A stretch of DNA of 64,000 nt from Cirrosporium novae-zelandiae. Taxonomy: Eukaryota. The notes under the pieces were generated by a model, which was not told the DNA's origin, searched no databases, and saw only the letters and a program-made list of their open reading frames with translations. A program made the translations under genes and the position numbers. Below are positions 57,680 through 63,971 of the stretch, one piece after another (the stretch's first letter is position 1; the number at the start of each line of letters is the position of its first letter). The stretch is taken from positions 62,001 to 126,000 of the forward strand of contig JAPETS010000038.1 of assembly GCA_026023565.1 (NCBI GenBank), read 5' to 3'.

Positions 57680-58257
57680 GCATGGGTACGGCGTCAACAA
57701 CTCACTTTGGTTGACGTTTATTTTGGTTCAGGATGAAAATGGCCGGAACCTATTGGTGTTAAATTTGGTTGGAGATCTATCGTGTGAATCCAGAGCATGT
57801 GCGAAGGAGTTTTAGGAAGCATTACGTACAAATGGAGTTGATGCAATCATTGACTCCACTATAGTTAGCCCAATTAATGCGCTTTGGCTGATATTGCAGT
57901 TCATCTAGTAATGGTTTTCTGTAGCCTATTTAGTCTATCGACGTATAGACTAGCTGACTGATAGGTACGTTTTGTGTACGGGCGTATGTATGTATGTAAT
58001 ATAAATCTAGTAAAATTATAATAATACCAAGATATCTTCTAAGGTCCGTCTTTATGATGTTTCGTCTTTCTACCCGCCCAACCAACTAACCATCATGGGA
58101 TGTCCTAATCGTTTATGGTATAATATGGTATACTTCCCAATAACATACCTAAGGTCCTTATATCCTTATTATTTTTCTCTCCTTTTCCTTATCTTGTATC
58201 ATCATCATCATCATCATCTATCTATACCATCCCACCCCACTCCATCCAGTTCCCATC

Positions 58258-60021
58258 TCAAAAGCTCCTAGCAAGCTTACTCATCTTCCTAAGCTGCAGT
58301 CCATAGAAATACAAAATATACACCAGGGCGACGATGGAGAGGGACACGAAGCCCAGGGTGGCCATGGCCCAGGTGGTGCTCATGTTTTCGAACATGATAA
58401 TGCCGATGTGTGCGAAGGCGGCGGCGATGGCGAAGGATGGGATCACGAAGGCGGCGATTGCGCTTGCGGCTACGTTGGGGTAGGCGTCTGTATGGCGTTA
58501 GTGGGTTGTGGGATGCGATGGGGTGGGGTGGGTTTGGGTAGTTACCTGTGATGTAGTTCAACATGCCCAGATACAACAACGGGTCGGAAAACCCGAGTAA
58601 TGTTCCTGCGATGACGGGCGACCAGTACGAGGTTTTGCCGTTAGACGTGAAACCGAACCAGAGTAAGGAGATGGGGAATCCCCACACCGCGACCAGGGAG
58701 GTTAAGAAACGAGCTTCAGGCCGGACGTGGCCGTGCTTGAGGCGATCGCGTTTAAAAAAGTAGGTCTGCACTGGCATGAAGCAGAACATGATTGTAACGC
58801 CGACGATGAAATTCAGGTATGTCAGATCGGCTTCAATATAGCTGAGCCCGTTATTTACAGCGAAGACGTCGAATACACCGTCGAGGTACAGGAAGAGCAA
58901 GCCGTATGCGAAGCCGTTGTAGATGGCTAGGAAGGTGACAATAGGTTCGAATAGCATGATGCGGAATGCCATTGTGGTAACGAAGCGAATCTCGTTGAGA
59001 ATTGCGAGACTGGTCTGTGTGACGGCGAGCTCGTTGGCGTCGGTAGTCCCACGACTCTTGACAGCTCTGGAGATGACAACCCGTGGAAGAGTTTCGGGGA
59101 CGAAGCAGAGTCCGAAGGCGAAGACGCCGCCGATTATGACACTGTGAGGGGGGAATATGTTAGTGATGGATGTTTTCAGAGCTCTGGCGCGCACATAAGA
59201 TGCGCGTAGAGTTTCGTCTCTTACTTGATCCAGAATATCCAGGGTAAGCCCATATTTGCATTATCCGCAATCCATTCACCGATTGGGGAGCCGAGAGAGG
59301 GTCCTGCATTTGCAGCCCAGACGAACAGAGCCATAGCCTGACCAGCTTCATCCGAGTGTCCGAATAGATCGGCAATGGTGCCAGCGACGTTGGAAACTGC
59401 AGTGCTGCCGGCGGTTCCAGAAAGGAATTGGAATATGATGAGCATGGGAAGGTTCTTTGGCAGCGCACAACCCTATATAACATCAGCAGGGAATCTTTAG
59501 GCTGCTGTTGTATGATAAGAGGAGCTCACAATGTTGATGAGAGCAAAACAAAGTATTGAGCCCGAGTATACCCATTTGCGTCCACCTATATCACTTCCAA
59601 TAGTTAGGGACAAATTTCATGGGTAACTTTTCCATGGACGCAATACTCACGATAAGGGTCCCAGAAACGCAGGCCCGATTGCGGTCCCTACAATGAACAT
59701 AGATTGACCCAAGGTGACGACCTGCACATTTGAAGTATTGAATTTTTCTTCAATCAGGAACTCGGCGGAAACATAACTTGTCGAGGTGATGGTAACGAAA
59801 ACCTGTAGCAAGCAGTAGATTGCCGTAATAACCCATTTCTTCCATGCTGGCCAGTGGAGAGGGTGGTCAGGATCGTCTTCATTAACTAGCTGAAGGATAT
59901 CGATGGCCGACTCCTCAACTTTCTCTGTCGTCACATGGTGAAGACCATTATCGAGCGTCTTTTCTCCCTTCTCAGCGTCGGGAGAGCTCTGAATGGCCTT
60001 TTCTTCAGAGTTAGAGTCCAT
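58258..60021 (-). CDS. MFS transporter, DHA1 (12-spanner) family
   Basis: DDPDHPLHWPAWKKW, FLGPLS|DIGGRKWVY, GTIADLF, GPSLGSPIG, CFVPETLP, LLFEPIV-like MLFEPIV and RPEARF. Four introns. Confidence 0.9.
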
Positions 60022-60175
60022 GGCAACGGGGGGAAGCAAGGAAGAAAAAATAAAAGAAAAAAGGACAGGACGAACACGAGGAGAAGAAAGTTCGTCAAGG
60101 AGAAAAAGAAGGAATTAGATGGTATATAGTTCTCCATAGTGGGAACATGAGACCCGATACCCGATCAATACGGTA

Positions 60176-60942
60176 TTATCTACTGGACATCATTGATCCA
60201 AAACAATTTGTCGTATTCTAGCTTATCAGAACTGAAAGGTGTGACGGCGACAAAGGTCGGACATATCAGTAATAAGTCTGGTAGTCATGGATAATCCATC
60301 CCATTATCTTTCAATTTCAGTCAATAAGCAGCCAGATTAAAAGCAAGCAGAGATAAGCAAATGAAGAAGTTCTTGAAAGGAGATCAATCAGTGGTCCTTG
60401 CTTGGTGCCTGCTTAGTTCCCTGTTGAATCCTTCAAGCCGGTTCGTAACAAGACCAACCATCTTGGTTGACCTGAGGTTGCAGTGCTTGGGGTTGAATAA
60501 TGGGTTTCGGGATTACCGTTAATACGCTAATACGCCATGGGTTGGTGGCAGGTGTGGATGTGGTGTGGATGTGATGTGGGTCTTATCGGATTGTCGGGTC
60601 CAGGTGGTCATCATGCATGTCAAACAAACACCACAAATATTTACTCGAGGACCTGCTTGAGAGTCTTGACAAGCAATTTGGCAAATGCTTGACTTCATGT
60701 CCTCTTCAGGTACTAAATACACTACTCTTCAAGGTCTTTTTCGTGTTTGCTTTTACAGCAAACATACCAAACAACAACAAACAACTTTGATATTTAGACT
60801 CTCATGGACATTGCCGCAGATTTTGTGGGACAACAAAAACCTTAACTAACCCACACCATCATTCCAGTTCCCATATCATCCATTCAACCCCCACCCCATT
60901 AGTGGGTTGATCCCCTTCCAAGTACAAAACTTTCACTGATAA
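60176..60942. promoter_or_regulatory. Cluster of HGATAR (GATA-factor) sites in the divergent MFS / 5-FCL-like promoter
   Basis: Sites at 60176, 60223, 60304, 60351, 60583 and 60937, four of them within ~180 bp. Confidence 0.5.
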
Positions 60943-61007
60943 TAATTCTTGTTACGTCTCCTTCCAACAGAGCTAGATTTCACTGTTGTAGCAGTACACC
61001 TTTAACA

Positions 61008-61793
61008 ATGTCTTATCGTCGAAATTCACCCCCTCCCCAGCTAGAGACCAAATCTGCAGTTCGTGAAAAAGTATGGAAAGAGCTACGAAAAGTCGCTCGT
61101 CCTGATTCAAGATTCCATTTTGATTTTGCCGAGTTCATTGCCGATTTTGAAGGCTCTGATCAAGCTGTCAATCGTTTTACCAGCCTTGACTGGTACAAAA
61201 CAGCCCAGATTATATTCATTACTCCAGACAACTGCCTCGAAGGCCTTCGCCTGGCCGCTCTTAAGGATGGCAAGCGAATTCTCATGACCACATATGCCAT
61301 ACGAAGGGGTTTCTGGCTAATCGACCCGAAAACAATACCTGTCGAACATTATCAGTATGCTGCGACCTTGGATGGTATGGAGAAGTTTGGTCGACCTATA
61401 AAGCTTGTTGAAATCATCAAAGAGACTCTGACGGTTGATTTGATGGTCACTGGTACTGGTGCAATCAACGCTGATGGAATCAGATTTGGTAAAGGTCACG
61501 GCTTCTTTGATCTGGAATGGGCTATGCTCTATAGCATTGGTGCCATCAGTACTGAAACCCACACAGCTGCTATTATTCATGATTGTCAGCTCTTAACAGA
61601 GCGGCTGATCCCTGAAACATTTGACACTGTTTGTGATGTTGTAGTCACCCCAACTCAAGTCTTACAAACAGGAAAACCACACAAGCCAGATTGTGGTATA
61701 TTATGGGATAAGCTAGCCCCGGGCATGTTGGCGAGTATTCCCCCGTTGCAGGAACTCAAGAGCATTATATTGGGCCATAAGATGTCAACTTAA
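61008..61793 (+). CDS. 5-formyltetrahydrofolate cyclo-ligase paralog (COG0212/MTHFSD-like), intronless
   Basis: K..VREKVW..L, FIADFEGS, IFITPDNCL..LR..AL.DGK, VDLMVTGTGAIN..GIRFGKGHGFFDLEWAML, IHDCQL and FDTVCDVVVTPT. Confidence 0.85.
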   Translation: MSYRRNSPPPQLETKSAVREKVWKELRKVARPDSRFHFDFAEFIADFEGSDQAVNRFTSLDWYKTAQIIFITPDNCLEGLRLAALKDGKRILMTTYAIRRGFWLIDPKTIPVEHYQYAATLDGMEKFGRPIKLVEIIKETLTVDLMVTGTGAINADGIRFGKGHGFFDLEWAMLYSIGAISTETHTAAIIHDCQLLTERLIPETFDTVCDVVVTPTQVLQTGKPHKPDCGILWDKLAPGMLASIPPLQELKSIILGHKMST

Positions 61794-61845
61794 TTTAGTC
61801 TCATCAGATAGTCAAAAGTTTCATATGCACATCATTACCAGGCGC

Positions 61846-62415
61846 CTAGCTTCTCTTTATACCTCTGGCTGCTCTAGTTTTACTCCAATATACATCAGCC
61901 TCCTCCATAACTATCCTGTCTAATCCTTCCACCGGTCCAATTATCTGAATATCCTTTTGCGGTGTTTTCTCGTCGCTCAGAATCTCTTTGGTGTGCCATT
62001 TCATGGTAAAATTCTCATCATTTCCAGGGCCCGTCAGCTCCTCTAGCTGGTCGTTCGATGCTGCAAAGACAACTCGTCCAATATTTGCCCAATATATAGT
62101 CGCAGAGCACATTGCGCAAGGCTCCCAGGTCGAATAGAGTGTGCATTGCCATAAATATGGTTGTGTGAAATGGCTGGATGCTAGCCGTGCAAGACTTGCC
62201 TCAGCATGATTGACGTGATCAACAGACTGGTGTGTGAGAAGAACAGTGGTATTATCTGGTCCAACAAGGACTCCAGCGAATGGGCGTTTCCCTTGAGTGA
62301 GAGCACGTCTCTGTACCGTTAAACAGGCATCAATCCCGGCTTTCATCTGAGACTCAGTTGGCAACGGTGGACGTTCTGGAAAAAACGTGGATTTGGGAGA
62401 CACTGTATCAGACAT
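61846..62415 (-). CDS. Zn-dependent cytidine/deoxycytidylate deaminase-superfamily protein (GuaD/TadA-like fold), intronless
   Basis: RPFAGVLVGP, HAE, LYSTWEPCAMCSATIYWANIGRVVFA. Confidence 0.9.
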   Translation of the reverse strand: MSDTVSPKSTFFPERPPLPTESQMKAGIDACLTVQRRALTQGKRPFAGVLVGPDNTTVLLTHQSVDHVNHAEASLARLASSHFTQPYLWQCTLYSTWEPCAMCSATIYWANIGRVVFAASNDQLEELTGPGNDENFTMKWHTKEILSDEKTPQKDIQIIGPVEGLDRIVMEEADVYWSKTRAARGIKRS

Positions 62416-62674
62416 TTTGAGTATGACGACTTGAGAGTCAATTGAATCTAATAGTAATCAATTATAAGTAATTGAAGAAATAATTAAATGAAGAAACTGC
62501 AGATTAGCTTTCTTAAGAATGGGGTAAACCCTGAGAGGCTAACAAACGGTCATCTCCGAATATCGCAAGTCGTAGATGATAAGCATACTTGGTAGTTTAT
62601 GCAATTGATTGGTCTCGAATAGTAAAATAGGAGGTGAGCTGGCTATTCCATGATGAGGAATAGGAGTTAATACC

Positions 62675-62731
62675 GTCGTGCGTGTCGTGCGTGTCGTGCG
62701 TGTCGTGCGTGTCGTGCCTGTTGTGCGCGTG
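62675..62731. repeat. 9-bp tandem repeat (GTCGTGCGT)n in the deaminase/UNG1 divergent promoter
   Basis: Four perfect units plus degenerate units. Confidence 0.9.
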
Positions 62732-62935
62732 TACCTGGTAATTTTGCTATGTTTGCATACTCCCAACCTCGTGAACGCGCTCGGCAATCTATCTCGAGCG
62801 TGAGACGCGACTTGCTGCCTGGGATCGTGTCATTCATATATATATATGCAGTTTCGACGCAATCTTGTAAAACAGTCATCCACCATTCTTCATTATACTC
62901 AAGCAGAACCAATTCAATCTATCAATTTCTTCACA

Positions 62936-63971
62936 ATGTCGACCAGTGCCACCAAGCGAAAAGCTGCTGACCTAGCTAAGGATGATGTAAAGAAACCCAA
63001 GGCCAATAGCAGCATTACCTCTTTCTTTAAACCACCAAAGACCGATTCCCCTAGCGCTAGTGGCACCCAGGCAACGTTTCGTTTCAACAAGGAGAAGTGG
63101 GTGGCAACGCTCACTGACGAGCAGAAAGATCTATTGAAACTTGAGATTGCAACGCTACATGAGAGCTGGCTATCACACTTAAAGGATGAGCTTATAACCA
63201 AAGAATTCCTAGAATTGAAGAGATTCTTGAGGAAAGAACAAGAGTCTGGTCAGACAATCTTCCCACCAGCAGAAGATGTTTACAGCTGGTATGATTAGCT
63301 ATAACCCCTATTCGGCGACATCCTAGTATTGACTTTTTCGCTTCTAGGTCAAGACATACACCATTTAATACCGTCAAAGTCGTCATTATTGGACAAGATC
63401 CATATCACAATATCAATCAGGCGCATGGCATGTGCTTCTCTGTCCGCCCACCTACTCCTGCTCCACCCTCCCTGAAGAACATCTACAAAGCCATCAAGAT
63501 CGACTATCCAGAATTCAAGCCTCCACCCAAGAATGGTGGTCTGCTCACTCCTTGGGCTGACCGAGGTGTCCTCCTTCTCAATACTTGTTTGACTGTAAGA
63601 GCCCACCAGGCCAACAGTCATTCTAACAGGGGATGGGAGAGGTTTACACAGAAAGTCATCGATATTGTGGCGAAAATGAGAACGAGGGGTGTAGTCTTCT
63701 TGGCTTGGGGTACTCCGGCAGGAAAGAGGGTTGTAAAAGTTGACAAGGCGAGACATTGTGTCCTACAGAGTGTCCATCCTAGCCCATTGAGTGCTGAAAG
63801 AGGATTTGTATGTGACCTTGTTGTACACAATATACCATATATGATGCTAACTCTTTCCAGTTCACATCCCACCATTTCAAAAAGGCCAATGATTGGCTGA
63901 AAGAGCGATATGGTGATAATAGTGAGATCGATTGGAGTCTTGACGCCCCTGCCAAGGCAGAAGTGAAATGA
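62936..63971 (+). CDS. UNG1: Uracil-DNA glycosylase (family 1)
   Basis: VKVVIIGQDPYH, QAHGMCFSV, PPSLKNIY, GVLLLNTCLTVRAH.ANSH...GWE.FT and SVHPSPLSA. Two introns. Confidence 0.97.

Follow-up and report, generated by a model that had tools for sequence, protein, structure and literature searches.

What do three neighbouring genes of the fungus Cirrosporium novae-zelandiae, encoding a major facilitator superfamily (MFS) transporter, a COG0212-type paralog of 5-formyltetrahydrofolate (5-formyl-THF) cyclo-ligase (5-FCL) and a zinc deaminase, do together, and on which substrate? The genes lie on contig JAPETS010000038.1 (assembly GCA_026023565.1) in a stretch of 64,000 nucleotides (positions 62,001 to 126,000, forward strand; hereafter the window, whose own numbering is used throughout), and the locus was read from a 31.4-Mb genome whose proteins match fungi. 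An earlier note on this DNA had proposed an uptake-deaminate-convert module for a damaged vitamin, pterin or aminopyrimidine/purine. We found that the trio consists of three real, intact genes, and it probably forms one functional unit; its substrate is probably a purine-type base and not a thiamin product. Our best explanation, a tentative one, is a compact, conserved module that handles damaged purine bases, with an uptake step, a ligase that would re-close ring-opened purines with ATP and a deaminase that would clear another damaged base.

The ligase scored 50.5 bits against PF01812 (cut-off 27) and 24.1 bits against TIGR02727, the canonical 5-FCL equivalog (cut-off 84.9). The best matches of its structural model (pLDDT 85.5) were 5-FCL structures (Foldseek E 2.6e-8; for 1YDM, Z 14.3 and root-mean-square deviation 3.3 with 169 residues aligned), and it is 15-18% identical to solved canonical members. 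A PF01812 search of the genome returned two matches, the window ligase and a gene on contig C46 that is 23% alike to it over 128 residues. The C46 gene has the canonical loop GRRLGHGRGYYD, in the YYD/HYD form also carried by bacterial canonical genes; the loop of the window ligase is RFGKGHGFFDLEW, with GKGHGFFDLEW where canonical 5-FCL has GxGxGYYD. The PF01812 match, the 5-FCL fold and the database names would all suit a second canonical 5-FCL, a reading to which we give almost no credence in view of the TIGR02727 score, the different loop and the true canonical gene on C46; the earlier note was right to set the ligase apart. Residues K15, R19, R159, G161-K162-G163-H164-G165, D168 and D206 were invariant in 28 ligase homologs. 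The run R159-x-G-K-G-H-G-F-F-D168 and the C-terminal Asp D206 align with the phosphate loop and C-terminal Asp of 5-FCL, and K15, R19, the loop and D206 presumably take part in ATP/Mg binding. The modelled ligase thus keeps the 5-FCL fold and the residues of the ATP site and differs on the substrate side. A phmmer match to the RNA polymerase alpha chain was dismissed as chance.

The best 120 of 2598 ligase matches were 60-69% identical, apart from one tandem form at 46%, and mixed lichen and other ascomycete fungi with rhizobia. Bacterial ligases fall into type B (that of the window), type A (~45% identical) and type C (28-33%, KxNPD motif), the last of which we take, from its motifs, to be classic COG0212. 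In a quick tree of 102 rows, A and B formed one clade, separated from C by a long branch (SH-aLRT 99). Type C was represented in our trees by bacterial sequences. A/B genes were present in 3 and type C genes in 10 of 401 Alphaproteobacteria, and some genomes carry C alongside A/B. The window ligase shares the GKGxGxxDLE loop, a PD motif, H..D and a C-terminal extension with classic-type members as invariant alignment columns, and it was the only match of a classic-type query in the genome (32% over 233 residues). The label COG0212/MTHFSD-like paralog given by the earlier note thus holds in the broad, motif-sharing sense of COG0212, but suggests too close a kinship with the classic MTHFSD lineage. 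Members of the A/B subclade from Ochrobactrum were reportedly counted under COG0212 by Pribat et al. in 2011.

A tree of 40 rows placed 11 fungal and 15 proteobacterial-type B proteins in one clade (100/99) nested in bacterial sequences, which fits acquisition of the fungal ligase from bacteria; a single fungal clade was compatible with the data (approximately unbiased test, p-AU 0.51). According to the passages on the gene in PMC5025739, Valsa mali HGT29 (VM1G_10361) is an intronless PF01812 gene of 258 aa catalogued as a bacteria-to-fungi transfer, annotated as 5-FCL with function 'NA', and its transcript rises in infected bark (1.93 to 9.56 reads per kilobase per million); these passages give no cluster or reaction. 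We infer from length, domain and species that HGT29 is orthologous to the Cytospora mali homolog P0108, which is equally long.

Types A and B often share one operon and also occur as tandem fusions. Two-domain ligase fusions of this kind and GntR-ligase fusions in Chloroflexota and Actinomycetota (together L015, L017, L020, L022, L048; P0021, P0121-P0138) suggest that one paralog may be able to act as a ligand sensor and that two paralogs may cooperate. No ligase-deaminase fusion was seen among 25 longer ligase matches, mostly tandem ligase fusions, a blank that is weak evidence. The 492-aa form from Ogataea has a tail that looks unrelated and is probably a merged gene model.

The spacing of the trio is by itself usual for a compact fungal genome; what goes beyond chance is the repeated adjacency of ligase and deaminase in other fungi. 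With 14 species-named fungal ligases and the best 120 of 222 deaminase matches as the search base, three ligases had a same-species deaminase among the matches listed, and these were the three best deaminase matches. All three pairs have consecutive locus tags and accessions (Table 1), and they cover two classes, as Candelariomycetes and two subclasses of Lecanoromycetes. A further ligase and deaminase (P0011, P0152) come from contigs of equal length, 22373, and one of the 20 MFS relatives examined (P0269) is on a contig of the same size, 49050, as ligase P0004. None of the 80 metagenome loci kept (see below) matched the MFS, the deaminase or the flanking genes, which leaves locus tags and equal contig sizes as the basis for fungal synteny. 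The synteny anticipated for the trio was borne out for ligase and deaminase in three other fungi, while MFS-ligase linkage outside this genome is suggestive only. In bacteria, the combination of transporter, ligase and deaminase did recur, with unrelated transporters and three deaminase folds.

Could the three genes function separately in a neighbourhood that was simply inherited? The linked fungal cases may all go back to a single ancestral arrangement; the deaminase is common across fungi, bacterial orthologs of it are found in genomes without a ligase match, and the promoter motif evidence (below) is weak. Adjacency across Candelariomycetes and two Lecanoromycetes subclasses, the rise of the same architecture among bacteria from other transporters and deaminase folds, and the presence of bacterial deaminase orthologs beside NMT1-type binding proteins and a xanthine permease nevertheless make separate functions distinctly improbable.

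The neighbours of bacterial A/B ligases point to purines. We analysed 160 loci totalling 1.56 Mb, half of them the top 80 of 252 from genomes and half the top 80 of 480 from metagenomes; they were ranked by likeness to the query and are neither random nor independent. An adenine deaminase, Pa0148-like or Ade, was present in 25 (19 ADA-fold, 6 Ade), equivalent to 18 of 77 groups at 90% identity and 6 of 28 at 80%; ~0.16 would be expected in 1.56 Mb, judging from 14 genes in 40 Pseudomonadota genomes (~135 Mb). The ADA-fold neighbour matches 3OU8/3PAN (E 1e-112), which we take to be the adenine deaminase Pa0148, its activity being known to us from a reference title only. In 4 of 11 genomes, which are incomplete assemblies, the linked enzyme was the sole adenine deaminase detected, and this fits ordinary adenine as the product. 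Deaminases of any kind occurred in 29 loci (three of them CDA-fold), a nucleoside hydrolase, phosphorylase or phosphoribosyltransferase in 13, and Xdh in 5. The transporters were NMT1/THI5-like ATP-binding cassette (ABC) systems (81), sugar-type ABC (13), energy-coupling factor (ECF) (7), NCS1 (4) and Bmp (4).

Nine loci (L084, L093, L099, L100, L123, L132, L141, L143, L161) carry a ligase cassette with a sugar ABC transporter, a PfkB kinase, a SIS protein and YjbQ (UPF0047), together with a nucleoside hydrolase or phosphorylase and a PfkB-ADP-ribosylglycohydrolase fusion; YjbQ and this fusion may have a role in nucleoside damage. In Rhodobacterales (L164, L167, L168), LysR and ABC transporters of the Bmp family accompany the classic-type COG0212 genes; the one in L164 stands back to back with a type A operon.

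Salvage or catabolism of thiamin breakdown products (formylaminopyrimidine or compounds of the hydroxymethylpyrimidine type) would agree with the link between COG0212 and thiamin made in the passages seen of PMC4120688 and PMC5874261. It would also suit the NMT1/THI5-like binding protein of the 81 loci, whose nearest solved relative is the formylaminopyrimidine (FAMP) binder 3IX1, at an E-value of only 6e-14. However, homologs of thiD, thiE, thiF, thiG, thiO and tenA were found in 0 of the 160 A/B loci (thiC and thiM were not among the queries), whereas thi/tenA homologs were found in 2 of 15 type C loci (L168, L234), none of which has an adenine deaminase. Thiamin pyrophosphate (TPP) riboswitches were likewise absent from 11 bacterial A/B loci, in a scan that finds one in type C locus L168, and from positions 57700-63000 of the window, including the stretch upstream of the ligase start. 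The TenA-domain genes of the fungal genome are on other contigs than the trio, and deamination of the thiamin pyrimidine would yield a toxic oxy form. We thus consider a thiamin pathway unlikely, and the emphasis that the earlier note had placed on thiamin and vitamins did not hold up; from its list of substrates, the purine option fits best. What remains thiamin-like in the A/B system is its transporters.

The fungal transporter shows 59% identity with a protein from Aureobasidium that carries the name bsu1, 46% with a 'pyridoxal family' transporter of Schizosaccharomyces osmophilus and 40% with the pyridoxine/pyridoxal/pyridoxamine transporter of that species. In a tree of 29 rows, from which S. 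pombe Bsu1 itself is absent, it fell into an 8-row clade with the Schizosaccharomyces B6 transporters (SH-aLRT 100), and its exons were the top-identity matches in the genome to a Bsu1-type query (35-52%, against at most 37% elsewhere). The placement near Bsu1 that had been suggested is therefore supported. The S. pombe gene SPCC965.13 presumably bears the same 'pyridoxal family transporter' name as P0276 and presumably lies beside the predicted cytosine deaminase SPCC965.14c; SPCC965.13 is induced in early quiescence. Passages of PMC6253932 and PMC4153625 describe Bsu1 as an importer of pyridoxine/B6 vitamers and thiamine that is repressed by thiamine, in line with a thiamin pathway, and tie it through a cited title to amiloride uptake. 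Because Bsu1 moves B6 vitamers and thiamine and is tied to amiloride, the Bsu1 clade is shown to carry small amino-heterocycles generally.

The deaminase has a CDA fold with intact zinc motifs, HAE and PCxxC; in 21 fungal homologs H70 and E72 are invariant, and C100 and C103 are kept in 20. Its best match in sequence and fold was M. smegmatis Msd (5XKO/5XKP/8WLW), at ~27% identity. Msd (Msmeg3575), a deaminase of mutagenic bases, accepts 5-azacytosine and isoguanine and leaves the natural bases cytosine and guanine untouched, according to PMC11963756 and PMC9081823. The Msd ligand contacts F29 and W95 are kept as F46 and W109, whereas E27 is replaced by R44 and N46 by Q63, so the Msd substrate cannot simply be copied to the fungal enzyme. 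The deaminase was matched in 16 of 301 Pseudomonadota genomes. Two of its five closest proteobacterial orthologs lie beside NMT1/THI5-like binding proteins, one of these also by a xanthine permease, and the other three, in Mesorhizobium-like loci, have no NMT1 or permease context. With these nucleobase-type neighbours, and with no match to the ligase profile in any of the five genomes, the deaminase is tied to nucleobase uptake and does not require the ligase. In a proteobacterial locus, L204:3823-7277, two CDA-fold deaminases (38% and 47% identical to that of the window) surround a Rieske oxygenase and a binding protein of the NMT1 type; with a xanthine permease nearby, this is possibly a modified-purine catabolic cluster.

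Which reaction could the ligase catalyse? 5-FCL phosphorylates the formyl oxygen of its substrate and a nearby nitrogen closes the ring; PurM closes the purine imidazole similarly. 5-Formyl-tetrahydropterin contains the formamidopyrimidine (Fapy) base FapyGua as its pyrimidine half, and FapyAde departs from FapyGua in ring substituents only. According to PMC12135143, oxidative stress produces Fapy lesions together with 8-oxopurines, N7-alkylated purines are another source of them, and Fapy bases cyclise chemically to purines. On these grounds of chemistry and neighbours, Fapy ring closure is a plausible reaction that we put forward with reserve. The Bsu1-clade MFS would import an aminopyrimidine-like base, and the ligase would apply 5-FCL chemistry to a smaller substrate, phosphorylating the formyl oxygen of a 5-formamido-4-aminopyrimidine (FapyAde, FapyGua or a relative). 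The neighbouring amine of the activated Fapy would then close the imidazole ring to give adenine or guanine, for salvage or breakdown. The Msd-like deaminase would treat either another damaged base that the MFS also imports (e.g. isoguanine to xanthine) or the ring-opened base itself. Because the fungus has other ADA-family genes, a parallel role on another oxidised base such as isoguanine seems more likely. A Fapy substrate class would explain the kept ATP site, the aminopyrimidine-like carriers, the downstream adenine deaminase, phosphoribosyltransferase and Xdh, and the upstream sugar-removing enzymes.

Taken further, and with somewhat greater reserve, type A/B enzymes might be ATP-dependent 'Fapy recyclases' for free ring-opened purines and so define an unrecognised damage-salvage route. 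Bacteria would combine them with adenine deaminases and with importers of the ThiY-like, NCS1, Bmp or ECF kind; fungi would have rebuilt the route by adding a Bsu1-type carrier and an Msd-like deaminase to a transferred gene. Adenine-derived substrates might go to one of the A and B paralogs and guanine-derived ones to the other, and the rearranged sugar of Fapy nucleosides might be stripped off by the hydrolase, PfkB and SIS neighbours.

Several points weigh against Fapy salvage by the trio. The substrate is argued from chemistry and gene neighbours only; no tested purine or nucleoside enzyme was present in 118 of the 160 A/B loci, and adenine deaminase neighbours suit any adenine-yielding or general purine-uptake locus. 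Both transporter types, MFS and NMT1/THI5-like ABC, have characterised relatives in B1/B6 uptake. On the fungal side, MFS linkage outside this genome comes down to the single case P0269/P0004, the deaminase departs from Msd at R44 and Q63, and its five closest proteobacterial orthologs come from genomes lacking a match to the ligase profile.

The same neighbour counts would serve a purine or nucleoside module with another substrate or reaction, such as a modified adenine or nucleoside, a pyrimidine-ring-opened purine, an ADP-ribose/NAD breakdown product or plain phosphotransfer. ADP-ribosylglycohydrolase family members in 16 of the 160 loci, SIS proteins (found with PfkB kinases) in 12, YjbQ in 7 and creatininase family members in 6 were also recorded, and all but YjbQ would favour such a module, as would the joint occurrence of A and B, also in tandem fusions, a hint at more than a single substrate or step. 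The only established chemistry of the fold, however, is formamide activation with ring closure, and the transporters resemble aminopyrimidine binders; we regard such a module as rather unlikely, if a serious competitor. A pterin or folate-breakdown module, acting for instance on a formylated tetrahydropterin, draws on the 5-formyl-THF bound by the parent family and on the existence of pterin deaminases. Among the annotated recurrent neighbour families there was no folate or pterin enzyme (singletons were not all annotated), and this reading is very improbable.

The layout of the locus (Table 1) agrees with the earlier description of three tightly linked genes, with divergent MFS and ligase starts about 1 kb apart and the deaminase converging on the ligase at the distance originally given. 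All three frames are intact with matched domains. The predicted MFS splice model is open, its exon pieces match MFS_1, and an alternative acceptor that we tried disrupts the frame. The term 'shared promoter' for MFS and ligase is a description of layout only.

Table 1. Coordinates of the trio in the window, and locus tags of linked ligase/deaminase pairs in other fungi.
Feature	Position or locus tags	Strand	Remarks
MFS transporter, DHA1-type, Bsu1 clade, 502 aa	58258..60021	-	predicted splice model gives one open frame; MFS_1
MFS exons (5)	60021-59651, 59593-59530, 59472-59225, 59141-58546, 58487-58258	-	predicted GT-AG introns
Divergent intergenic region, 986 bp	60022..61007	.	between MFS and ligase start codons
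Ligase, COG0212-type 5-formyl-THF cyclo-ligase paralog, type B, 261 aa, intronless	61008..61793	+	PF01812
Convergent gap, 52 bp	61794..61845	.	between ligase and deaminase stop codons
Zinc deaminase, CDA-fold (COG0590-type), 189 aa, intronless	61846..62415	-	PF00383
Pycnora praestabilis ligase/deaminase	M1827_004444/004443		consecutive tags
Bachmanniomyces ligase/deaminase	MMC09_003263/003262		consecutive tags
Toensbergia leucococca ligase/deaminase	MMC12_001803/001802		consecutive tags

The divergent region holds six HGATAR sites against 2.5 in shuffles, a number reached by 18 of 500 shuffles in one of eight motif-region tests; this is at most a weak hint of nitrogen control. The region has no UaY-type site (TCGG-N6-CCGA), an Rfam scan of it gave no match of note, and 9-mers common to both promoters were not above shuffles (25/200). 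Immediately 5' of the ligase start (~60920-61000), a branch-point-like, pyrimidine-rich stretch ending in CAG would permit an intron in the 5' untranslated region. The trio is flanked by housekeeping genes, MED14 and ATG22 on the left, and uracil-DNA glycosylase, an ApoO-domain gene and an M3 peptidase on the right. The deaminase and the uracil-DNA glycosylase (UDG domain) gene have a 521-bp divergent region in common (62416-62936), with a short GTCGTGCGT tandem repeat of ~4-5 copies at 62680-62720; the position of a base-damage enzyme beside the deaminase may be chance.

The trio is thus a genuine gene cluster, conserved in part, that arranges known families in a new way, and the reaction proposed for it is unproven and directly testable. 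A search mostly outside subscription journals found no published account of the fungal trio or of enzymatic Fapy ring closure. COG0212 has been an orphan family since 2011, loosely tied to thiamin, and the window locus and related loci set apart a subclade with gene neighbours that point towards purines. If Fapy salvage is correct, it would be a new metabolite-repair reaction and a fate for free ring-opened purines; it would account for the recurrent 'thiamin-like' transporters beside A/B genes, correct thousands of '5-FCL' annotations, and give a lead, though no final answer, on what human MTHFSD and the plant protein do, both apparently in the sister clade.

Compared with canonical 5-FCL/MTHFS (YgfA, Fau1), the window ligase has the same fold (Z 14.3) and ATP-site residues, and the proposed formamide phosphorylation followed by cyclisation would be alike; its identity (15-18%), sub-cut-off score and loop differ, and the true ortholog is elsewhere in the genome. 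With the COG0212/MTHFSD paralogs it shares the PF01812 fold, the GKGxGxxDLE loop, the conserved PD and H..D, a C-terminal W extension, an orphan function and genes beside ThiY-like ABC and ECF transporters, but it belongs to a separate A/B subclade (TPDN/GKGHG motifs, against the classic KxNPD) with purine and nucleoside genes as neighbours instead of thi genes. The MFS falls in one fully supported DHA1 clade with transporters of the S. pombe Bsu1 (Car1) type and with the Schizosaccharomyces 'pyridoxal family' paralog; its identity with this uncharacterised paralog (46%) exceeds that with the Bsu1 type (40%). Msd is the closest match to the deaminase in sequence and structure, with the zinc ligands and equivalents of F29 and W95, yet the window enzyme is only ~27% identical, has E27 and N46 replaced and a C-terminal helix, and falls in a separate fungal/proteobacterial subfamily. 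Finally, the bacterial operons of RpiR, ligase, NMT1/THI5 ABC transporter and adenine deaminase, a roseobacter form with which loci L030, L063, L064, L076 and L077 agree, have the same architecture of gene types as the fungal trio, in which the partners are unrelated proteins (MFS, CDA-fold deaminase) and the ligase is of type B only.

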